Assembly: GCA_963705555.1 (NCBI GenBank)
Contig: CAVPJZ010000002.1
Span: forward strand, 43,886 to 107,885
Length of the DNA: 64,000 nt
Source of the DNA: an uncultured delta proteobacterium
Lineage (GTDB): Bacteria > Desulfobacterota > Syntrophia > Syntrophales > Smithellaceae
Direction: 5' to 3'
Position numbers and translations under genes: made by a program. Within the stretch, counting starts at the first letter, position 1. Every line of letters begins with the position of its first letter. Shown here piece by piece: positions 5,911 to 60,352 of this stretch. Below the pieces are notes generated by a model. The model was not told the origin of the DNA and ran no database searches. It worked only from the letters and a program-made list of their open reading frames with translations.

Positions 5911-7951
5911 ATGACCATACGACGTCGCATAAAATCAAGTCTCGAAACTGGAGGGGAAATTAAGAAGCTTTCCACGCTTTTTATATTTTTTCTGGTCTTA
6001 ATCATTATTATCCTATTCTTAACAGTTGGCGGAACTATTATCTACTACGCCCTGACTTTGGATTTGCCCAGCATTGATACGCTTAAAGATTACCGCCCCA
6101 GCATAGCTTCCAGAGTTTACGATGATAACAATGAGTTGATTGATGAGTTTTTCTTGGAAGATAGAAAAATAGTGAAGATAGAAGAAGTTCCGAAGGTCGT
6201 CCACTATGCTTTTGTTGCCTCGGAAGACTCCCGTTTCTACCAGCATCAGGGTCTGGATATTCAAAGTATTTTTCGCGCACTGTTCAAAAATTTTGAAGCA
6301 GGGCACATCGTCCAAGGCGCCAGTACCATTACTCAGCAAGTAGCGAAGATGATGTACCTTTCACCGGAAAAAAAGTACATCCGCAAACTTAAGGAAGCGA
6401 TTCTCGCTTATAAAATCGATAAATATCTTTCCAAAGATGAAATTTTAAATTTATATTTGAATCAGATTTATCTGGGACACGGAACTTACGGAATAGAATC
6501 GGCAGCGCTCGGTTACTTTGGCAAAACTGCCAAGGAATTGACCCTGCCCGAGGCTGCGCTTTTAGCCGGCCTGCCCAAAGCGCCCAATACATATTCTCCA
6601 TTTCTCTATTTTGATAAAGCAAAGCAAAGACAAGCTTATGTTCTCGCGCGCATGGTGGAAGACGGCTACATATCCAAGGAAGAAATGGACAAAGCCTCTG
6701 CCGCTCCCCTGCAATTACGGTCAATGAGACCAAAAGATAAAATCGCCGCTTACTTTGTGGAAAATGTCCGCCGCTACGTGCAGGAAAAATACGGCGCCGA
6801 TGTTCTATATAAGGAAGGTCTATCAATATATACGACTTTGAATTTGCCCGCGCAACAAAACGCGCGTGACGCTGTGGAAAAAGGCTTGACGGAATTGGAA
6901 GAAAGACAAAAATACGAGCGCGGGTTGGTACAAGGAGCGCTATTCTGTATGGATGTGAAAACCGGCGCTATTCGCGCGATGGTTGGGGGCCGCGACTTCA
7001 ATAAGAGCGAATTCAATCGTGCGACCCAATCCCGCAGACAGGCCGGCTCTGCTTTTAAGCCGTTGATCTATACGGCGGCATTTGACAAAGGATTGAATCC
7101 TTCAACACGATTTCGTTGATTCTCCTATTGTAATAGAAGATCCAACTGCAGAAGACGGCCTCTGGAAACCAAGAAACTTCGATGAAAAATTCTTAGGGCC
7201 TACTACCATGAGGACTGCTCTTGTTCAATCGCGAAATATTGTAACAATTAAAATTTTGCAGGAAATTGGTGTTGATTACGCGGCATCTTACGCCACGAAT
7301 ATGGGCATTTCTTCTCCTGTAGCGCGGACACTATCGCTGGCACTTGGTGTATCGGGTGTAACCCTGGAGGAACTTGTAAGAGCTTATGATGTTTTAGCGA
7401 ATCAGGGTAAGAAAGTAACTCCTTATTTTATTAAAAAAATTGTTGATCGCACCGGTAATGTTTTTGAAGAGACTAAAGTTCAAACAGAACAGGTTATCGA
7501 TCCACGCATTGCTTTCATGACATCTTACATTATGCGGGATGTTGTAGAAAGCGGTACTGGCAGGCGCGTTAAAAGCATTGGAAGACCGGTTGCCGGAAAA
7601 ACGGGAACGACGAATGATTTTCGTGACGCCTGGTTTATCGGTTTTACTCCTTCCCTTATTACCGGAGTTTGGGTAGGTTTCGATCAGGAAATATCTTTGG
7701 GCAAACAAGAAGTAGGTGGAAGAGCAGCGGCACCTATTTGGTTGTATTTTATGGGAAAAGCGCTGCAAAACGTTCCTGTGGAAACCTTTCACACGCCGGA
7801 AGGTATCGTTTTTATTAAAGTCGATCCTAAAACCGGAAGACCATCAAGCGAATCAGATAAAGGAACTATTTACGAATGTTTTCTGGATAGCGCGCAGCCC
7901 AGTGAAAAATCCGACGATTTCCCCGAAGAAAAGGAAGATATATTTCGATAA
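5911..7951 (+). CDS. mrcA: Penicillin-binding protein 1A (bifunctional transglycosylase/transpeptidase); two frame breaks at about 7100-7210
   Basis: GT51 motifs (EDSRFYQHQGLD, ASTITQQ) lie in ORF 5911..7119. Transpeptidase motifs (SAFKP, KTGTTND) follow in ORF 7208..7951. Confidence 0.85.
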
Positions 7952-7979
7952 AAATTTAGGAGTTTCACAATAAAGGGAC

Positions 7980-8008
7980 TTGACAAAAACTTTTTTTTCC
8001 GTTATTAG
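7980..8008 (+). promoter_or_regulatory. Candidate sigma-70 promoter for the ilv leader
   Basis: TTGACA at 7980-7985, a 17-nt spacer, then TATTAG at 8003-8008. Confidence 0.4.
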
Positions 8009-8032
8009 AAAATACAGAGAAGGAATCAAATT

Positions 8033-8140
8033 ATGTTTCTTAAAGATTTAAACAGCGGCAGTAGCCTGATAATCAATAGCGTAAGGGTACTCGTAGTAGT
8101 ATTCACGGGGTCTGCCGCTCTCTGTATCTTTAAGAAATAA
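8033..8140 (+). CDS. Putative ilv operon leader peptide (35 aa, branched-chain amino acid rich)
   Basis: ATG at 8033 lies about 9 nt after AGAAGGA. The peptide is MFLKDLNSGSSLIINSVRVLVVVFTGSAALCIFKK, with 13 of 35 residues Leu/Ile/Val. It is followed by two terminator hairpins upstream of ilvB. Confidence 0.55.
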   Translation: MFLKDLNSGSSLIINSVRVLVVVFTGSAALCIFKK

Positions 8141-8153
8141 CATAAAAAGATAC

Positions 8154-8187
8154 AAGCCGCGGGCCCCTAAATCCCGCGGCTTTTTTG
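8154..8187 (+). terminator. Intrinsic terminator/attenuator hairpin 1
   Basis: AAGCCGCGGG (8154-8163) pairs with CCCGCGGCTT (8173-8182) and runs into a T6 tract. Confidence 0.65.
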
Positions 8188-8197
8188 TTTTAGCAGT

Positions 8198-8234
8198 AAA
8201 GCCGCTTTTCTCAAAAGAAACCAGCGGCTTTTTT
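8198..8234 (+). terminator. Intrinsic terminator/attenuator hairpin 2
   Basis: AAAGCCGCT (8198-8206) pairs with AGCGGCTTT (8223-8231), followed by a T-run to 8234. Confidence 0.5.
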
Positions 8235-8316
8235 AATTAGTTCGGCTCGAGCAAACGAGTCGCAGGGTCACGGCGGGTAAAATTTTAATATATATACAAA
8301 ACCCAGGAGTAAATAA

Positions 8317-10021
8317 ATGAAATTAAAAGGTTCACAAATTCTACTGAAGATGTTGGAAGAGGAAAAAGTGGATATCATTTTCGGATACCCGGGTGGATCA
8401 GTTCTGGATATTTACGATCAACTTTATAAAAGTAACATTAAGCATATTCTGGTTCGTCATGAACAGGGGGCAGTACATGCCGCTGACGGCTATGCCCGTG
8501 CTACCGGAAGAGTGGGCGTCTGCCTGGTAACCTCCGGTCCGGGAGCCACAAACACTGTTACCGGTATCGCCACGGCCAATATGGATTCCATACCTATCGT
8601 CGTTTTTACGGGGCAAGTACCGACAGCATTGATCGGCAACGATGCTTTTCAGGAATCTGACATCACGGGCATAACACGCCCCTGCACCAAACACAATTTT
8701 CTGGTTAGGAGCGTGGAAGAGCTTGCTTCGACTATTAAGGAAGCTTTTCACATCGCGCGCTCAGGGCGGCCGGGCCCGGTTTTGGTTGACTTGCCCAAAA
8801 ACGTGATGGCAACGGAAACCGACTACGATCCCGCCAGTATTAAGATTAGAAACTATGATATATTTCACAAACCGGCCCCCAAGAAAATGGCTCAGGTTTT
8901 AGAAATGCTGACTCAGGCCAAAAAGCCTTTAATTATGACCGGCGGCGGCGTCATTCTGGGTAAAGCTGCGGCAGAGCTAACCGAACTGGCAAGACATTAT
9001 CAAATCCCCGTCACCGGCACCTTGATGGGATTGGGTTCTTTCCCGGGCACAGATCCGCTCTGGCTGGGCATGCTGGGAATGCACGGCACCTTCTACGCGA
9101 ATATGGCGGTTAGCCATTGCGATTTGCTTATTGCCGTGGGAGTGAGGTTCGACGACCGCGTCACAGGCACGATTGAAACTTTTGCCGACCAACGCCAAGA
9201 TTGTTCAAATCGATATTGATCCTTCCTCCATCAACAGAAATGTTGTCGTTGAGTTACCGATTATCGGCGAAACTAAAGCAACACTTCGGGATATGATTAA
9301 ATTTTTGGCTGAACATAACTATTCTCCATCACTATCCGACCGTAAGAAATGGCTGAGACAAATTGCCGAATGGAAGGAAAAAGTTCCGCTGACATACTGT
9401 CAAAATAGCAAAGTTATCAAACCGCAGTACGTCATCGAAACACTCCGCAAATTGACTAAAGGCAATGTTATTATCACCACAGAAGTCGGCCAGAATCAGA
9501 TGTGGACGGCGCAATTTTTCCAGTTTGATCGTCCCAATACTTTCATTACGTCCGGCGGACTGGGCACAATGGGCTATGGCCTACCCGCGGCGATTGGTGT
9601 TAAGTGCGCGTTTCCCGATAAACAAGTTGTGGATATAGCCGGCGACGGCAGTATCCAGATGAACATTCAGGAACTGGCTACTGCCGCTCAGTATAAAATT
9701 GCCGTAAAAGTCGTTCTTTTAAATAATGGCTATTTGGGCATGGTGCGCCAGTGGCAGGAATTATTTTATGAAAAACGTTATTCGCACACGGATATGACTT
9801 ATGCTCCGGACTTCGTGAAATTGGCTGAAGCTTACGGCATCGTCGGTTTGCGCGCGACAAAACCGGAAGAGGTGGAACCGATTTTACAAAAAGGGCTTTC
9901 TATCGATAAGCCGGTGTTGATGGATTTTCGGGTTTCCCGTGAAGAATGCGTTTATCCCATGGTGCGTCCGGGTGAATCCATCAGCGAAATGGAGCTGGGC
10001 ACCAGAGAAATGATCAATTAA
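8317..10021 (+). CDS. ilvB: Acetolactate synthase large subunit; one frame break near 9180-9220
   Basis: ORFs 8317..9219 and 9173..10021 are colinear with ThDP-dependent ALS ([24 protein letters not shown]). Confidence 0.9.
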
Positions 10022-10048: not shown

Positions 10049-10534
10049 ATGGAAAAAAAAGAGCACATAATTTCGATACTTGTCCACAATAAACCGGACG
10101 TGTTAGCGAGAATCGCAGGAACACTGGGCGGCAAAGGCTACAACATTGAAAGTCTCTGCGTGAACACGACCACCCAATACGAAATATCGAAAATAGTAAT
10201 GACCACTATCGGCAATCAGGCAACCATTACCAGAATCGAAAGCCAATTGCAGAGGCTTGTCGATGTAATTCAAGTCGATGATTTGACCAATGTCGAATCA
10301 ATTCACCGCGAAATGATTCTCGTTCGGTTGAATTTGGCCGATGATAAAAAAGAGCAGATAAAAAAAGCAATTGACACCTACAAATGGAAGGTAATAGTCT
10401 CCAACGATGCTTTTGTAATTCTGGAAATTACTGGCGATAAACCGCAAATCGATCTTGCCCTTGCCCGATTGGAGCCTCTGGGTATCACCGATATTACAAG
10501 AACGGGTATCGTAGCTTTGAATTTAAAAAACTAA
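10049..10534 (+). CDS. ilvN: Acetolactate synthase small (regulatory) subunit
   Basis: 161-aa ORF with an ACT-domain sequence (HIISILVHNKPDVLARIAG) directly after ilvB. Confidence 0.85.
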   Translation: MEKKEHIISILVHNKPDVLARIAGTLGGKGYNIESLCVNTTTQYEISKIVMTTIGNQATITRIESQLQRLVDVIQVDDLTNVESIHREMILVRLNLADDKKEQIKKAIDTYKWKVIVSNDAFVILEITGDKPQIDLALARLEPLGITDITRTGIVALNLKN

Positions 10535-10568: not shown

Positions 10569-11626
10569 ATGGCAAAAATTAATTTTGGCGGTGTTCAGGA
10601 AGATGTTATCACAGCGGAAGAATTTTCTCTAAAAAAAGCCCAGGAAGTTTTAAAAAATGAAGTGGTGGCTGTTCTCGGTTACGGCGTTCAAGGCCCGGCG
10701 CAGGCATTGAATATGAAAGATAACGGCATCAATGTAATTATTGGCCAGGCCAAGGAAGATAAGTCCTATTGGGATAAAGCCATGGCCGACGGCTGGGTTC
10801 CCGGTAAAACGCTTTTCCCCATTGAAGAAGCAGTGCAAACGCGGCACAATTATTCAATATCTGGTATCGGATGCCGCGCAGATGATGCTCTGGCCCAAAG
10901 TCAAAGCAAATCTGAAAAAAGGCGACGCCCTTTATTTTTCGCATGGTTTCTCCATCGTCTACAAAGAACAGACCGGCGTGATTCCGCCTGATTTTGTGGA
11001 TGTGATTATGGTCGCCCCCAAAGGCTCGGGAACCAGTGTCCGCAGAAATTTCCTGGACGGCAGCGGCATTAACAGCAGTTTCGCGGTTCATCAGGATGCC
11101 ACCGGCCGCGCGAAAGAAAGAACATTGGCGCTGGGTATCGCTATCGGTTCCGGTTTCTTGTTTCCCGACAACTTTCCAGATGGAAGTATACAGCGATCTG
11201 ACCGGAGAGCGCGGCGTGCTCATGGGTGCGCTGGCCGGAATGATGGAAGCGCAGTACAATGAACTGCGCAAGCATGGTCATACTCCCAGCGAAGCCTTTA
11301 ACGAAACAGTGGAAGAACTGACGCAGAGCCTTATTCGTCTGGTGGGCGAAAACGGTATGGATTGGATGTATGCCAATTGCAGCACTACTGCTCAACGCGG
11401 CGCACTGGACTGGCGGCACAAGTTCCGCAAGGCAGTGGAGCCGGTTTTTGCCGAACTTTACGACTCGGTCGCTAAAGGCAAGGAAACGGCAATTGTCCTC
11501 AAAGCCAACAGCGCTCCTGATTACAAAGTAAAGCTCGACGCGGAACTCAAAGAAATGCGTGAATCGGAAATGTGGCAGGCCGGCGCGGCTGTCCGTTCCT
11601 TGAGGCCGGAAAAAAGAAAAAAGTGA
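10569..11626 (+). CDS. ilvC: Ketol-acid reductoisomerase; at least two frame breaks (about 10850 and 11150)
   Basis: Three overlapping ORFs in different frames are colinear with IlvC (VAVLGYGVQGPAQALNMKDNG, SHGFSIVY, MVAPKGSG, LMGALAGMMEAQY). Confidence 0.9.
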
Positions 11627-11812: not shown

Positions 11813-13478
11813 ATGAGAAGCGATCTCATGAAAAAAGGGTTGGAGCGTGCGCCGCACCGTTCGCTCTTTAAAGCCATGGGCTATACCGATGAAGAAATTG
11901 CACGGCCACTGATCGGCGTTGTCAATTCCGCCAATGAAATTATCCCCGGACATATTCATCTGGATTTAATTACCCAGGATGTCAAAGCGGGAATCCGCAT
12001 GGCCGGCGGCACTCCGGTGGAATTTCCGGTAATCGGAGTTTGCGACGGAATAGCAATGGGGCATGCCGGCATGAAATATTCACTGGCCAGCCGGGAATTG
12101 ATTGCCGATTCCATTGAAATCATGGCGATGGCTCATCCTTTTGACGCTCTGGTTTTTATCCCCAACTGCGACAAGATTATTCCCGGTATGCTCATGGCGG
12201 CTCTGCGCTTAAATATACCGTCCATTTTTATCAGCGGCGGCCCGATGCTGGCGGGCAAAATGGAAGGTAAAGCCGTTGACCTCATCAGCGTTTTTGAAGG
12301 CGTCGGTGCGGTTAAAGCCAAAAAGATGACCGAAGCCAGTTTAAAGCAATTGGAAGATTGCGCCTGTCCGGGTTGCGGTTCCTGCTCCGGCATGTACACC
12401 GCCAATTCCATGAACTGCGTGACGGAAGCATTGGGATTGGGGCTTCCCGGAAACGGCACGATTCCGGCGGTTCAGGCGGCGCGTCGACAGGCTGGCCAAA
12501 CACGCGGGAATGAAAATAATGGAATTGCTCAAAAAGAAAGTGAAGCCGCGCGATATCGCGACGCTGGCCGCTTTTAAAAACGCCATTGCCGTGGATATGG
12601 CGCTGGGTTGTTCCACCAATACAGTTTTGCATATTCCGGCGATTGCTCATGAAGCGGGCATTAAACTTGATTTGGACCTCTTTAATAAAATCAGCGAGAA
12701 AACTCCCAATCTCTGCAAATTAAGTCCCGCCGGTCATCATCATATTGAAGATTTGGACACGGCCGGTGGTATTCAAGCCGTGATGAAAGTCATCAGCACG
12801 CTGGGCGTCATTGATACAAAAGCCCATGACCGTTACCGGTAAAAATGTGGAAGCTAATTTAAAAAACGCCCGCGTTTTGAATGATGAAGTCATCCGGCCA
12901 TTGAATAATCCTTATTCACCGCAGGGCGGCATCGCTATTTTGCGCGGCAATCTGGCGCCGGACGGCGCAGTCGTGAAACAATCCGCTGTCGCTCCCGGCC
13001 ATGCAGGTCAACGAAGGCAGGGCCCGAGTCTTTGATTGCGAAGATGACGCCATAAAAGCAATTCTGAGGCGGAAAAATTAAATCCGGTGATATTGTTGTC
13101 ATCCGCTATGAAGGTCCCAAAGGCGGGCCGGGAATGCGAGAAATGCTTTCGCCCACATCGGCCATTGTCGGCATGGGTCTGGATAAAACAGTTGCTCTTT
13201 TGACTGACGGACGTTTCAGCGGCGGCACGCAGGGCGCGGCTATCGGCCATATCTCACCGGAAGCGGCGGAAGGCGGCCCGATCGCGCTGGTTAAAGAAGG
13301 CGACATCATTGCCATCAACATTCCGGCAAAAAACTTGAATCTGAAAGTCAGCGATAAGGAACTGGAAAAGCGCAGAAAAGCTCTAAAACTAAAAAAACCG
13401 GCGATTACGAGCGGCTATCTGGCGCGCTATGCGAAGCTGGTTACGTCCGCTTCGACGGGAGCAATTTTTAAAGACTGA
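11813..13478 (+). CDS. ilvD: Dihydroxy-acid dehydratase; at least four frame breaks
   Basis: ORFs 11813.., 12510.., 12811.. and 13134..13478 are colinear with IlvD ([45 protein letters not shown]). Confidence 0.9.
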
Positions 13479-14701: not shown

Positions 14702-15815
14702 TCAGTTCCAATCCACCAGCATCAACCCGGCACTAATCCGATTTATGCTAGTGTTGTAATCGATCAGGCTCTCCCCGTAGCCATTAAAATACTGAATGTA
14801 GAAGCTGATATTTTTAAAATTATCACTGATAAAAGACAACGGAATACTCCAATCCAGTTGAACCGCCCCCAAATTATTCTCGACCGTAAATTATTGCGCA
14901 ACATTGCCGCGAAACGCTGACCTTTCCAGTAATAAATCCCCCATAATTCGCCATACCCCATATATCTGGTAATATCAGGATTATCGTCATTGTGTTCGTC
15001 TTCCGGAATCCGGTACCATGTTTTCAAAAGCAAATTAAAATTGTCTTTTTCCATGCCCACATTAGCTACAACACGGTTCCAACTGCGGGAAAGAGGCCGG
15101 GAACGGCCATTGGATTGATGGTTCAACCCAAGATTAAAATATCGTACTTTAAAATTATCAAAACCGGGGATTTAGATAATCGGTGCGAAAGTTGATCAAG
15201 CAGCTCCGGTTCGTAATTGGTATCGCGGAAAGGAGAAGAAAACGCCGAGTTGTAAAGCTGCCAGAACGAAAGTTGCGTGTAGGCCACCCATATATCTATA
15301 CCGATATCCTTTTTAAATACATCTTTCAGCGTATCCTTGAGCACATCTTCCCAAATCTTCATTTTAAAGCTTAATTGAAATTTTGCTTCGTCGTGCTGGG
15401 CTTTGGCCCTCGGATCCATATCCAAAGCGGTATCTTCATTCGGCGAGGAATTATAGGCAACAGGCAAGAAATAGTTAGGGCGGTAAGGTTTAAGCATGTA
15501 AAAAGAGCTTTTCCCTTTTTCCCCGTCTAAATCCCAGTGTTTCGACATTACGGAAATCTGCTTTTTTTCCTTCGCCGGTTCTTCAGTTACTGCTGCGGCA
15601 GCAGCGCTCGGAGGTGAAGTGTCTTTTACAGAAGTTTGTTGCTTCGCCAGATTATCGAAGCACTCCAATCTCGCAGCGGCGTCATCTTTAATTTTTGCGC
15701 ACTCAGCCACGCGGTCGGCAATTTCAGCGGCGTCACCGGGAAACGATGAAAACAGCAAAAAAAACATACATATTAATATTGTTTTAAATGCTTTCCTGAT
15801 TTTTAAAGTTTCCAT
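14702..15815 (-). CDS. pldA: Outer-membrane phospholipase A (OMPLA); about two frame breaks
   Basis: YRPNYFLPVAYNS, FQLSFK, YTQLSFWQLYN and, after shifts, NGRSRPLSRSWNR, DDNPDI and YFNGYGESLIDYN. The ATG at 15815 overlaps the upstream stop (TGATG). Confidence 0.8.
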
Positions 15816-16693
15816 CAATGCAAACCCTCTTGCCTTTCTTGTTTTCTTTTATCCAAATCAGCATATAATTTTTTCTCGCAATCCGGACAAATGCCGTGGC
15901 TGAATTCCGCCTCGGTATGTTTTTGGAGATAAGCTTCGATTTGATTCCAATAGCCTTTATCATCACGAATTTTTTTACAGTAAGCACATATCGGCAATAA
16001 TCCGCTTAACTGTTTGACATCGGCCAGGACATTTTGAAGTTCGGCAATAGTATCATGCAATTTTACAACCAGAGGTTCTGTGACCTTAATAAATATTACT
16101 GCGCCGATCATAATGGCAATAATGCCAAATAAGCCGCAAATTAATCCAGCCTTGATAAAAGGAGCGCGAACTTCGGTCATATCGACCTTAGCAACAATAC
16201 CCCAGTTTAATAGCACCACCGGTTCGTAGGCAGCTAAAACTTGTTCTCCGCGATAATCCAATCCAACAATAGTTCCGGAATTCCCGGATAGCGCCTGTCG
16301 CATCGGTTCCGCCAATCTGGAGTTGAAAGGAACCGGTTGCATATTCTGCAAATTGCTATGACGCTGATTTAAAATAAAAACAATATCATCCCCTTGTCTT
16401 TTGGCCAGAGTGAACTCACCGGTTTCACCAAAACCCTTATAATGTTTATTCGCATCTATGACTTGGCTTAACGTCGCTTCATTTACTCCCAAAGGATAAG
16501 TCTTTCTGTATAGGGAATCGAATCTAGCCACTGCTTCAATCAAGCGGGCCTGACTCACGACAATGTCCCGAAGATCATTTGCTTGTTCTTTAAATGCCGT
16601 TCGGTAAAGCATTGTAATCGCAATCACTTCGACTCCCAGAACTATCACTACCATGATTAAAATCAGCAACATAATTCTTTTGCGCGGGCTCAT
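15815..16693 (-). CDS. Membrane sensor: two TM helices flanking a Cache-like periplasmic domain, with a C-terminal CxxC...CxxC module
   Basis: 292-aa intact ORF. It has an N-terminal TM helix, the Cache-like segment DYRGEQVLAAYEP...WGIVAKVD and a second TM helix. It ends LPICAYCKKIRDDKGYWNQIEAYLQKHTEAEFSHGICPDCEKKLY. Confidence 0.7.
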   Translation of the reverse strand: MSPRKRIMLLILIMVVIVLGVEVIAITMLYRTAFKEQANDLRDIVVSQARLIEAVARFDSLYRKTYPLGVNEATLSQVIDANKHYKGFGETGEFTLAKRQGDDIVFILNQRHSNLQNMQPVPFNSRLAEPMRQALSGNSGTIVGLDYRGEQVLAAYEPVVLLNWGIVAKVDMTEVRAPFIKAGLICGLFGIIAIMIGAVIFIKVTEPLVVKLHDTIAELQNVLADVKQLSGLLPICAYCKKIRDDKGYWNQIEAYLQKHTEAEFSHGICPDCEKKLYADLDKRKQERQEGLH

Positions 16694-45176: not shown

Positions 45177-45207
45177 GTTTACTAAAAACTTTATTTGCCC
45201 TAAAAAA

Positions 45208-45236
45208 GGGACAGGTAAAAACCTGTCCCTTTTTTT
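45208..45236 (+). terminator. Intrinsic terminator
   Basis: GGGACAGG (45208-15) pairs with CCTGTCCC (45222-29), followed by T7. Confidence 0.75.
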
Positions 45237-51620: not shown

Positions 51621-51656
51621 AATAAAAGCCGCGTTTAGTATAAGCGCGGCTTTTTG
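51621..51656. terminator. Terminator hairpin with A/T tracts on both sides
   Basis: GCCGCG (51628-33) pairs with CGCGGC (51645-50). It is flanked by AAAA..AAA on one side and TTTTT on the other. Confidence 0.6.
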
Positions 51657-57723: not shown

Positions 57724-59079
57724 ATGGAAGCAGTTTGGGACAAAACGAGCTAAAATTATTCAGGAAAAGCTAAGTAAGCAAAATTTTGATACCTGGATAA
57801 AACCGATCAAAATAGTTGCCATGGAAGATAAGTGCGTGCAACTGATGGTGCCCAATAAATTTTTTAAAGATTGGCTTTTGGATAATTATTTTTCTACGAT
57901 TAAACAATCATTGCAAAATGTTGTTGGTATTGATGTTGATATTGATTTTATCCTCTCTAAGATAAAGAAAAAAGCCCAGATTCTGTGTCAAAGTCCCCTA
58001 TGCAGGCGAAAAACGCTTCTTCTTCGACGGCAAGTAAAGGGAAAAATTATTCTTTCTTAAATAATAACTATACCTTTGACAGGTTTGTGGTGGGCCCCTG
58101 CAATCAGTTTGCCCACGCCGCTTCCATTGCCGTAGCCAAACAACCGGCAAAAAATTATAATCCTCTGTTTATTTACGGCGGATCCGGTTTAGGAAAAACA
58201 CATTTACTTAATGCTATTGGTCTTCTCACCACTACCGCCCATCCGGAACTAAATGTTATGTATGTGTCCGCGGAAGAATTTATGAATGAAATGATTAATT
58301 CCATTCGTTATGACCGGATGCCCAAATTTAGGGAAAAATACCGTAATATCAGTTGTTTATTAATTGACGATATTCATTTTTTAGCGGGAAAAGAAAGAAC
58401 CCAGGAAGAATTTTTTCATACTTTCAATACGTTGCATGATTCGGGAAAACAAATAGTCGTCACCAGTGATAAATTTCCTAAAGATATTCCTAATTTGGAA
58501 GGACGACTGCGTTCTCGTTTTGAGTGGGGATTGATTGCCGATATTCAACCTCCGGAAATAGAAACAAAAATTGCCATTATCGAGAAAAAAATGCAGGAAA
58601 GTAAAATTGACTTTACCTAGTACATGTTGCTCATTATATTGCCTCTCACGTAGAATCCAACATTCGTGAACTGGAAGGCTTTCTAGTTAGAATAAGCGCT
58701 TATTCTTCTTTAACAGGCAGAGAAATTGATTTGGATTTAGTAAAGGAAGTGTTAAAAAACGTAGTTAAACACAATGAAAAAGAAGAAGTAAGTATTGAAG
58801 AAATAATTAAAGTGGTTGCCGGAAAATTAAACGTAAAAATATCCGATATAAAAGCGCATAATAAAAATAAAAATCTTGTTTTTGCGCGACAAATTGCCAT
58901 GTATTTAGCCAGAAAATTAACCAATGCTTCTTTTCCGGATATCGGTCAAAAAATCGGCGATAGAGATCATTCGACGGTAATTTATGCCAACAAATAAAAT
59001 TTTAAACAATATTGAAGTCGATTCTAAATTAAAAAATATAATTCAGGAGATTGAAGATATTTTAATCCACAAAACGTAA
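57724..59079 (+). CDS. dnaA: Chromosomal replication initiator DnaA; at least four frame breaks
   Basis: MEAVW.., FDTWIKPI, the AAA+ segment [15 protein letters not shown], and domain IV ([21 protein letters not shown]). The segments sit in successive frames. Confidence 0.9.
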
Positions 59080-59242
59080 AGTTTTTAACATCAGTTTATA
59101 AACAGGTGATTATTATTATAAATTATTGTAATTATTATAAAAACTATATTTACTCAACATATCCACAGGCTCTATTACTAATACTATTTATTAATATATA
59201 AGAAAATAATAATAATAAATAATACAAAACAAGGAGGAAAGT
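59080..59242. other. Candidate oriC / DNA-unwinding region in the dnaA-dnaN spacer
   Basis: Very AT-rich, with ATTATTATAAA-type reiterations at 59109-59145 and one DnaA box, ATATCCACA, at 59159-67. Confidence 0.45.
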
Positions 59243-60352
59243 ATGGAATTTAAAATAAACAGAAACACCTTTCTTGATGGTATTCAAAAAACTTTAGGAA
59301 TTGTAGAAAAAAAGACAACAATGCCCATTTTAAATAATGTTCTTTTAAAAGCGGAAGCCAATAAACTTAAAATAATTGCTACGGATAGAGAAATAAGTTT
59401 AATTTCTGATTATGAAGCGGAAATAGTAGAAAAAGGTGAAATAACTATTTCAGCGAAAAAATTATATGAAATGGTTAGAGAAATTCAAGGAGAAGTTATT
59501 TCTTTTACTCAAAATAATAACGTTGTAAAAATATCCTGTCAGAGAGCTGTTTATAAAATACCCGGCTTACCGGCAGAAGATTTTCCCAGTATTGCCGATG
59601 ATCATGATGTTCAACTTTTTAATATTAAGGGAACAATAATTAAGGATTTAATTAATAAAACAGCATTTGCTATGGCTACAGATGAAATGAGAAAAAACTT
59701 AAATGGAGTTTTATTAGAGGCTGTCTCAGATGAATCAAATAATGTATTGCGCATGGTGGCCACCGACGGCCATCGTTTAGCCGTGGCAAAAGATGTAATA
59801 TCTGAGCCTTTTTTAGAAACAGGAAAGGGCGTTATCATTCCCCGCAAAGGTTTAATGGAAGTTAAAAAAATTATTGATGAAAACGAAAGCGTCAAGATAG
59901 GCATTCATAAAAACATGTTTGTTATAAAAACCGATAGTACGCTTCTTAAAGTTAGTCTGGTTGATGCTGATTATCCTGATTATAAAAGGGTTATTCCCGC
60001 GGAAAAAGGTATAAATATTGTTTTGGAAAAAGAGTCTTTCCTTCATGCTTTGCGCAGAATGAATGTTGTTTCTTCGGAACGTTATGGCGGAGTTATTCTT
60101 TCCTTTTCGGAAGGAAAGTTAACTCTTAATTCGACTAACCTGGATGTGGGCGAAGCAACGGAAGAAATAGATATTACTTATAGTGGTGAGGATATGGATG
60201 TGGGATTTAATGTGAATTATTTGATTGATGCGATTTCCGTCATCAGCAAAGAAAGTATTCTGTTTGAGGTTGGGTCGGGCATTAAACCGTCAGTGATAAA
60301 GCAAACTGAAGGCGATGATTATTTGTGTATCGTTATGCCGTTAAAAATATAG
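59243..60352 (+). CDS. dnaN: DNA polymerase III beta sliding clamp
   Basis: 369-aa intact ORF colinear with DnaN ([16 protein letters not shown]...ATDGHRLA...). Confidence 0.9.

Follow-up and report, generated by a model that had tools for sequence, protein, structure and literature searches.

What decides whether transcription enters the branched-chain amino acid operon ilvB-ilvN-ilvC-ilvD of a Smithellaceae-like member of the Syntrophales, when two intrinsic terminators in series separate its promoter from its first gene? The question is raised by positions 7980 to 8234 of a 64,000-nucleotide (nt) stretch of contig CAVPJZ010000002.1, hereafter the window, where an initial annotation had read a leader-peptide attenuator with tandem terminators ahead of ilvBNC. 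We have found this anatomy conserved at 18 loci, together with mutually exclusive folds of the leader RNA, and we consider it highly probable that the predicted element is a ribosome-mediated, leader-peptide transcription attenuator of the four genes. On how the second terminator is passed our answer is tentative. One leader-peptide sensor may govern both serial terminators by a register-shift relay (segments 2:3 pairing first and then 4:5) conserved in this Syntrophales clade, and we give such a relay nearly, if not quite, an even chance. The suspicion that the host is unrelated to the enteric bacteria proved right, the nearest ilvB homologs coming from metagenome-assembled genomes annotated as Syntrophaceae, Smithellaceae, Smithella or Syntrophales.

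A leader that accompanies ilvB

For comparison, ilvB loci were gathered from genome and metagenome collections, along with contigs encoding close homologs, giving 173 ilvB loci in total. Eighteen distinct loci, namely the window and 17 other contigs, all from uncultured Syntrophales and with ilvB N-terminal regions that are 70-99% identical, share a common layout. It consists of a promoter, a ribosome-binding site (RBS, in most of them), an open reading frame (ORF) rich in Ile, Leu and Val, a 'GGGG-N-CNGNNG' segment, and two terminators, T1 and T2. One member (L173) is truncated within the leader ORF and its 3′ part alone was checked. A covariance model, R1, built from the 17 relatives with the window excluded, matched the window at 8106-8234 over the full model length (123.1 bits, E 2.3e-21), and its search of the 173 ilvB loci found no members beyond the 18.

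The gene upstream of the leader differs among members: some have PBP1A (a class A penicillin-binding protein), some an LCM-family protein, and others an acetyltransferase or a divergent SPOR protein. The leader element therefore travels with ilvB. In the window, tatC and the PBP1A gene lie upstream. The idea that T1 and T2 serve as terminators of that PBP1A gene was rejected, as the conserved promoter intervenes between them and the element is kept with ilvB after the upstream gene has changed.

The promoter-like pair of hexamers proposed initially, TTGACA at 7980-85 and a -10-like TATTAG at 8003-08 with a 17-nt spacer, was recovered at the same positions on reading the sequence, 337 nt from ilvB. 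TTGACA is unchanged in all 17 members with upstream sequence, and each of these carries a TAnnnN-like hexamer 17 nt further on. A purine-rich GGA, GAAGG or GGAG lies a few to about a dozen nt before the start codon in most of the 17 aligned members, and is not evident in L166.

The leader ORF of the window (Table 1), its RBS and its composition all agree with what had been described: 13 of the 35 residues are Leu, Ile or Val, nine of them within the 12-residue run LIINSVRVLVVV. Among the 594 ORFs in the window that start with ATG and have 20-60 codons, just 2 reach such a density. Conservation of this small ORF and of its Ile/Val/Leu codons upstream of ilvB in relatives had been suggested as a check, and both are kept in the 17 other contigs, where the homologous ORFs have 26-35 codons with an Ile/Leu/Val run (for example MIRQIIASIVVVVVVVVVAGTAARMC, MISSSLTSVFSVVVGVVVVVIVAAGTVARLV and MIYQRKQARNLMVVAVVVAVPKGSAAWFL). 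When five Smithella-clade leaders were compared, the changes within the run were mostly synonymous or exchanges among Ile, Leu and Val. At the other end of the ORF, a 2-nt indel among relatives turns the C-terminus ...ALCIFKK* into ...ALYL*, with the nucleotides and the RNA pairing retained. From these two patterns it follows that the run is held as codons, while the 3′ end of the ORF is held as RNA. Outside the Ile/Leu/Val run and the codons that overlie RNA segment 2, the peptide sequence is not conserved. In the 16 members whose ORF is intact, the stop codon always follows GGGG at a distance of 22 or 31 nt, and in the aligned leaders the Ile/Leu/Val run stops 1-2 codons ahead of the GGG codon.

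All five Val codons of the window's leader are GTA. A rare-codon role was considered and set aside, since GTA accounts for 21% of the Val codons in the long ORFs of the window and is not notably rare. In a separate case, the leader of a long-read-derived genome (L060, 3429-3480) reads GTA-T-AGG, where the extra base, probably a sequencing error, creates a premature stop after 17 codons; its RNA elements are all intact.

Mutually exclusive folds and the position of the ribosome

Six GCGGC or GCCGC cores had been noted in the leader, and all of them were found again (8055-59, 8114-18, 8156-60, 8176-80, 8201-05 and 8224-28). The reading of segments 3:4 and 5:6 as T-tract terminators also holds, both being present in 18 of 18 members and each followed in the window by U6. 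T1 (-18.7 kcal/mol) pairs AAGCCGCGGG at 8154-63 with CCCGCGGCUU at 8173-82, and a CCCC-type run begins its loop in every member (CUCC in L162). T2 (-15.2 to -15.6 kcal/mol) pairs 8198-8206 and 8207-11 with 8216-20 and 8223-31 (9 + 5 bp); its upper stem varies by lineage, with one compensatory pair. Both loops are longer than 8 nt, which is why a simple terminator scanner misses T1 and T2 alike. The hairpin pattern AGCCGC..GCGGCTTT occurs five times in the window against 0.07 expected. A further terminator, bidirectional and lying between two minus-strand genes at 51625-51653 (AAAGCCGCG-loop-CGCGGCTTT), shares its stem core with T1 and T2.

The free full leader folds, at minimum free energy (MFE), into a hairpin of segments 1 and 2 together with T1 and T2 (z = -5.0 against dinucleotide shuffles). 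This 1:2 hairpin joins 8031-47 to 8126-45 and 8054-61 to 8112-19; its energy is -38.5 kcal/mol for the window and ranges from -31 to -47 among the relatives. The pairing of 8054-61 with 8112-19 across the regulatory codons, which had been predicted, appears in both the MFE and the centroid folds.

The antiterminator had been sought in a pairing of segment 2 with segment 4 or segment 6. These duplexes amount to 5-6 bp (-11.0 and -11.8 kcal/mol), as compared with -23.3 kcal/mol for segments 2:3, and the partner has to be corrected accordingly. The antiterminator is a shifted-register 2:3 hairpin spanning 8107-8167, in which GGGGUCUGCCGCU at 8107-19 pairs with AGCCGCGGGCCCC at 8155-67 over 13 positions with one C-C mismatch, and the helix is extended by GUAUCUUU at 8124-31 pairing with AAAGAUAC at 8146-53. 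It is the MFE structure of 8102-8187, where T1 is absent. The energetic comparison of terminator and antiterminator that had been called for thus upholds exclusive folds (-29.6 kcal/mol for the whole 2:3 hairpin against -18.7 for T1) and disposes of the 2:4 and 2:6 partners.

The same relation is found throughout the family. In all 18 members 2:3 (-23.5 to -37.4 kcal/mol) is stronger than T1 (-12.7 to -23.5 kcal/mol). Across the 18 sequences, 93.7% of the cells of the whole 2:3 structure are paired, compared with 46-68% in slid controls, and for the lower helix the value is 97.5%. Three pairs of 2:3 are changed on both sides, and the observed covariation score was reached by 4 of 500 shuffles. 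In the upper helix the complementary sequences are lineage-specific, and they pair better than interior shuffles in most lineages. The leader stop codon falls within the apical loop of 2:3 or next to it, so that a terminating ribosome would sit on the antiterminator.

Two bounding models of the ribosome were used: in model (a) folding was limited to the RNA 3′ of the footprint, and in model (b) the footprint was masked only. With no pairing allowed across the ribosome (model a), the antiterminator is dominant as long as the A site has not moved past Val-21, and T1 and T2 are dominant from Val-22 to the stop codon; the change from ON to OFF comes exactly where the Val run ends. Applied to 16 relatives, model (a) puts the switch close to where the Ile/Leu/Val run stops in about 11.

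We infer that the leader is translated, that ribosomes stall at its run and that the response is to branched-chain amino acids. Transcription would begin near 8015, from the conserved TTGACA promoter, and a ribosome would translate the 35-codon leader. With an ample supply of charged Ile-, Val- and Leu-tRNAs, the ribosome would reach the stop codon (8138-40) in the antiterminator loop and block 2:3; T1 (8154-82, with its U6) would then form, and a polymerase that escapes it would meet T2 (8198-8231, U6). Without translation, the long 1:2 hairpin would sequester segment 2 with the same OFF outcome. When these tRNAs are scarce, a ribosome stalled within L12-V21 (8066-8095) would leave segment 2 free to pair with the 5′ arm and loop of T1 (8107-31 with 8146-67), and T1 could not form. 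The freed 3′ arm of T1, GCGGCUUU, could in turn pair with the 5′ arm of T2, AAAGCCGC, weakening T2 and allowing read-through into ilvB.

Several observations speak against the attenuator as just described. The -10 hexamer TATTAG is weak, with G instead of T at position 6, on account of which a consensus scanner remained silent on the promoter. The window copies of ilvB, ilvC and ilvD carry frameshifts, and the leader of L060 has its 1-nt insertion. Equilibrium folding keeps T1 formed throughout in the L084/L085 group. Model (b) gives the ON state solely with the P site at codons 4-13 (stalls at codons 5-14), when the footprint lies over segment 1, and for stalls in the Val run it lets the 1:2 helix formally close around the ribosome. 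We regard such a closure as sterically doubtful, and a second, queued ribosome would also cover segment 1; the outcome of model (b) nonetheless stands as a caveat on the predicted switch.

Table 1. Positions of the leader elements and of the downstream genes in the window
Feature	Position	Strand	Details
Promoter	7980..8008	+	Start site predicted near 8015
Shine-Dalgarno-like GAGAAGGA	8017..8024	+	AAGGA at 8020-24; 8 nt to the leader ATG at 8033
Segment 1 (5′ strand of the 1:2 protector hairpin)	8031..8061	+	8031-47 and AGCGGCAG at 8054-61; MFE and centroid folds
Leader ORF, 35 codons and TAA	8033..8140	+	MFLKDLNSGSSLIINSVRVLVVVFTGSAALCIFKK; from the sequence and homologous ORFs in relatives
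Regulatory codons L12-V23	8066..8101	+	CTG ATA ATC AAT AGC GTA AGG GTA CTC GTA GTA GTA
Segment 2	8107..8145	+	GGGGUCUGCCGCU at 8107-19 and GUAUCUUU at 8124-31 (to segment 3), or 8112-19 and 8126-45 (to segment 1)
Segment 3	8146..8167	+	AAAGAUAC at 8146-53 and AGCCGCGGGCCCC at 8155-67; T1 5′ arm and CCCC loop; antiterminator 3′ strand
Terminator T1	8154..8187	+	10-bp stem 8154-63/8173-82, 9-nt loop, U6
Candidate 4:5 anti-T2 hairpin	8176..8205	+	GCGGCUUU at 8176-83 with AAAGCCGC at 8198-8205, and 4 inner pairs; putative function
Terminator T2	8198..8234	+	AAAGCCGCU-UUUCU, loop CAAA, AGAAA-(CC)-AGCGGCUUU, U6
ilvB (acetolactate synthase large subunit)	8317..10021	+	Pfam TPP_enzyme_N, _M, _C
ilvN	10049..10534	+	Pfam ALS_ss_C, ACT
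ilvC	10569..11626	+	Three pieces; Pfam KARI_N, KARI_C
ilvD	11813..13478	+	At least three pieces; Pfam ILVD_EDD_N, ILV_EDD_C

The second terminator and the competing explanations

If a stalled ribosome does no more than disable T1, transcription would still have to pass T2. In three members (L088, L002 and L084) T2 and ilvB are separated by only 30-47 nt or so, too little to hold a second promoter. A promoter between the two, which would make T2 irrelevant, was rejected on this ground, and any transcript that enters ilvB has to run through T2. In the window this gap measures 82 nt. In close relatives, insertions of 50-350 nt lie between T2 and ilvB (L060 3630-3990, L001 845-1090 and L081 1870-2000); these are composed of small palindromic units (TTATCCC...GGGAT), resemble REP or miniature mobile elements and are absent from the window.

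The segment that would be liberated by the antiterminator, consisting of the 3′ arm of T1 and the start of its U-tract, is exactly complementary to the A tract and 5′ arm of T2. The resulting 4:5 hairpin has -16.0 kcal/mol in the window, and across the family its range of -12.7 to -17.5 kcal/mol compares with -12.1 to -17.8 for T2, the two being near-equal in 18 of 18 members. Its 8 core pairs are likewise retained in all 18. Segment 5 reads GCCGC in every member, while segment 6, its partner in T2, varies to GCGGU in six members and to GUGGC in one. We give about an even chance to the claim that 4:5 pairing relieves T2 once the 3′ arm of T1 has been freed.

The closest competitor accepts the same attenuator and lets T1 alone be regulated. 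In that case T2 would be a constitutive, leaky back-up that lowers basal and induced expression together, and 4:5 would be a by-product of the GCCGC/GCGGC stem that both terminators share. We hold this to be a serious possibility, if one that stays somewhat under an even chance. A number of results favour it and count against the relay. Covariation was sought for the 4:5 core in the 18 sequences and no two-sided changes were found; the core is invariant and hence uninformative in this respect. The extension of 4:5 beyond its 8-bp core is not better than in shuffled spacers (p about 0.03-0.4). In about half of the members (about 9 of 16), equilibrium folding still prefers T2 in the ON state, and the upper stem of T2 could act as a toehold that displaces 4:5. 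Finally, since the terminator at 51625-53 has the same core, the core shared by T1 and T2 is possibly a habit of the lineage and not a product of selection for 4:5. Against an unregulated T2 stands the stability of 4:5, which equals that of T2 in 18 of 18 members and is joined by the advantage that 4:5 would form first during transcription. The invariance of segment 5 in all members, despite the changes that segment 6 tolerates, points the same way. In addition, a strong T2 beyond regulation would be costly, as several members leave ilvB no room for a promoter of its own.

Another explanation, which we find unlikely, concerns this genome in particular: the attenuator might be a relic in front of a pseudogenised operon. 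In the window, ilvB is in two pieces (8317-9219 and 9173-10021) owing to a 1-nt insertion near 9188 relative to L081, a 92%-identical contig; two more such insertions lie in ilvC (10836 and 11167), and ilvD is fragmented. The leader itself is intact and equal in length to that of L081, where ilvB is an intact 567-amino-acid (aa) ORF and ilvN is intact too. Furthermore, the frameshifts are not confined to the operon: the PBP1A gene has a 1-nt insertion relative to L081 at 7114, and the phospholipase A1 gene (14764-15818, minus strand) is also fragmented. Because these two genes are hit as well, the frameshifts look like assembly or sequencing error and not like the loss of a single pathway.

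Two further explanations are, in our judgement, very improbable. In one, the leader would be an RNA that senses a ligand, a tRNA or a protein (as a T-box, as a riboswitch for ppGpp or something else, or by binding a regulatory protein), with the ORF incidental. The strong structure of the leader (z = -5) fits this idea, and ppGpp riboswitches are described as controlling ilvB in some bacteria (PMC10272879). Yet neither the window nor 14 related loci gave a match at the gathering threshold of any Rfam 15 family; leader and small RNA (sRNA) matches at E up to 10 were weak, and the T-box and riboswitch models (ppGpp included) gave no match at E up to 10 in 7900-8400. The start codon, the RBS, the frame and the Ile/Leu/Val codons are conserved with synonymous variation, and the stop codon keeps a constant place with respect to the antiterminator, all of which speaks against an incidental ORF. 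In the other, the element would be a small gene in its own right (for a hydrophobic micro-protein or an sRNA, with its own terminators) that neighbours ilvB and does not regulate it, which would suit the hydrophobic peptide of 26-35 residues, the annotation of a comparable 32-aa ORF as a gene in one assembly (L169) and the weak, sub-threshold covariance-model matches to sRNA families, but would leave unexplained a peptide not conserved beyond its Ile/Leu/Val run and segment-2 codons, a tolerated frame-shifting C-terminal indel, a location always co-oriented with and directly upstream of ilvB whatever the upstream gene, and a conserved antiterminator overlapping T1 that would have no role in a stand-alone gene.

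Related leaders and significance

The ilvGMEDA (ilvL) and ilvBN (ivbL) leaders of enterobacteria are the classical leader-peptide attenuators of branched-chain amino acid genes. The Syntrophales leader resembles them in having a promoter-proximal Ile/Val/Leu-rich ORF (of about 32 codons in the enteric leaders), in its exclusive protector, antiterminator and terminator hairpins, in the predicted logic of stalling and in an intrinsic terminator placed ahead of the branched-chain amino acid genes. It differs from them in belonging to another phylum, with no detectable sequence or covariance-model similarity, in having two serial terminators instead of one, and in an antiterminator that makes use of the terminator loop (GGGG with CCCC). 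The different peptide and the double terminator, by which the element had at first been set apart from the enterobacterial leaders, are thus real distinctions.

A parallel to the proposed register-shift logic is provided by the his leader of Salmonella and E. coli, whose hairpins A:B, C:D and E:F shift to B:C and D:E on stalling. In the Syntrophales leader, 1:2, 3:4 and 5:6 would likewise represent the OFF state and 2:3 and 4:5 the ON state. Here, however, the codons are for Ile, Val and Leu and not for His, and 3:4 and 5:6 are both U-tract terminators, while in the his leader just the last hairpin is one. Among the best cis-regulatory Rfam matches of the window was His_leader (RF00514), with 21.3 bits over 8049-8189 for a gathering threshold of 49; Thr_leader (RF00506) scored 13.2 bits against a threshold of 55.

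Outside the enteric bacteria, the taxonomic spread of leader-peptide attenuators has been summarised (PMC1262725), and ilv leader-peptide attenuation is predicted or shown in other Proteobacteria, in Actinobacteria and in Firmicutes (PMC1262725; PMC11857589). Corynebacterium ilvBNC is preceded by an upstream ORF (uORF) with branched-chain amino acid codons and by terminator, antiterminator and anti-antiterminator structures, of which the terminator and its effect on expression were confirmed by mutation (PMC11857589; PMC10272879); the ilvB-II motif is specific to Corynebacterium (PMC10272879). The Syntrophales element shares with Corynebacterium ilvBNC and ilvB-II an uORF enriched in such codons upstream of ilvBNC and a set of alternative hairpins. 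Corynebacterium, on the other hand, belongs to the Actinobacteria, and its leader is unrelated in sequence, has a single terminator and was tested experimentally, whereas the Syntrophales element is predicted from sequence. The ilvB-OMG motif and the Leptospira ilvB motif, too, have been re-interpreted as attenuators with a uORF in which branched-chain (and Thr) codons abound (PMC10272879). These have in common with our leader a conserved, structured RNA upstream of ilvB, and differ from it in taxa and consensus. No Rfam 15 match named ilvB-OMG, ilvB or ilvB-II was found at E up to 10, the presence of these motifs in the library being unverified. We found no published account of ilv leader attenuators in Deltaproteobacteria or in Desulfo- or Syntrophus lineages, nor of tandem-terminator attenuators, and an earlier description is possible.

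A second ilvB leader family, unrelated to the first and also without an Rfam entry, was seen within 100-250 nt of ilvB, on its upstream side, in Desulfobacterales-type contigs at about 25 of the fetched loci (L003, L012, L025, L087, L093, L104 and about 20 more). It has the same gene context in a neighbouring lineage of the same broad group and an Ile/Leu/Val-rich ORF of about 33 codons, and is distinguished from the Syntrophales family by a single terminator of 12-15 bp, an unrelated sequence and the absence of any R1 match. Its ORF ends in G-L-I/V-M-A/V, where the codons GGGYUGRUAAUGG form the antiterminator strand against the 5′ arm of the terminator, CCGUUAUCAGCCC, and L093 shows a compensatory change of A to G and U to C. 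Near ilvB of a Desulfobacteraceae genome, a selenocysteine tRNA gene was identified (L003 73-166, minus strand; Rfam RF01852, 74 bits). Other Syntrophales ilvB leaders, at about 960-1180 of L165 and about 1010-1180 of L168 and L169, have a single terminator and the peptides MISNLTLISLVLLVVPCTSGAG and MEAIKTAHLQVAIIIISILIITSFAYGGWAMV; the leader ORF of L169, called as a 32-aa gene, gave no Pfam match.

Elsewhere in the window, 45203-45234 holds a bidirectional terminator that forms a perfect palindrome (AAAAAGGGACAGG-loop-CCTGTCCCTTTTT) and folds with about -20 kcal/mol on each strand, and the G+C content falls to 0.33 over 58001-60000, compared with about 0.45 in the rest of the window.

The leader is a new, lineage-specific ilvB attenuator family of a well-known kind, unusual solely in its conserved double terminator and in the relay that may link the two. 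It is consistent with attenuation by uORFs as an apparently common route of ilvB regulation, as put forward by Narunsky et al. 2023 (PMC10272879), with reference to the ilvB-II, ilvB-OMG and Leptospira ilvB motifs. In metagenome-assembled genomes of this type, the 35-codon ORF and the two 'orphan' terminators can be annotated as one regulatory unit. No general principle is altered by this finding; the question of the relay is relevant to the study and engineering of transcriptional attenuators, and the tandem terminators, conserved as they are, provide a small natural system in which to ask if a single antitermination event can be passed on from the first terminator to the second. If the relay is true, it would give these Syntrophales a very low basal read-through into ilvB under a single control point.

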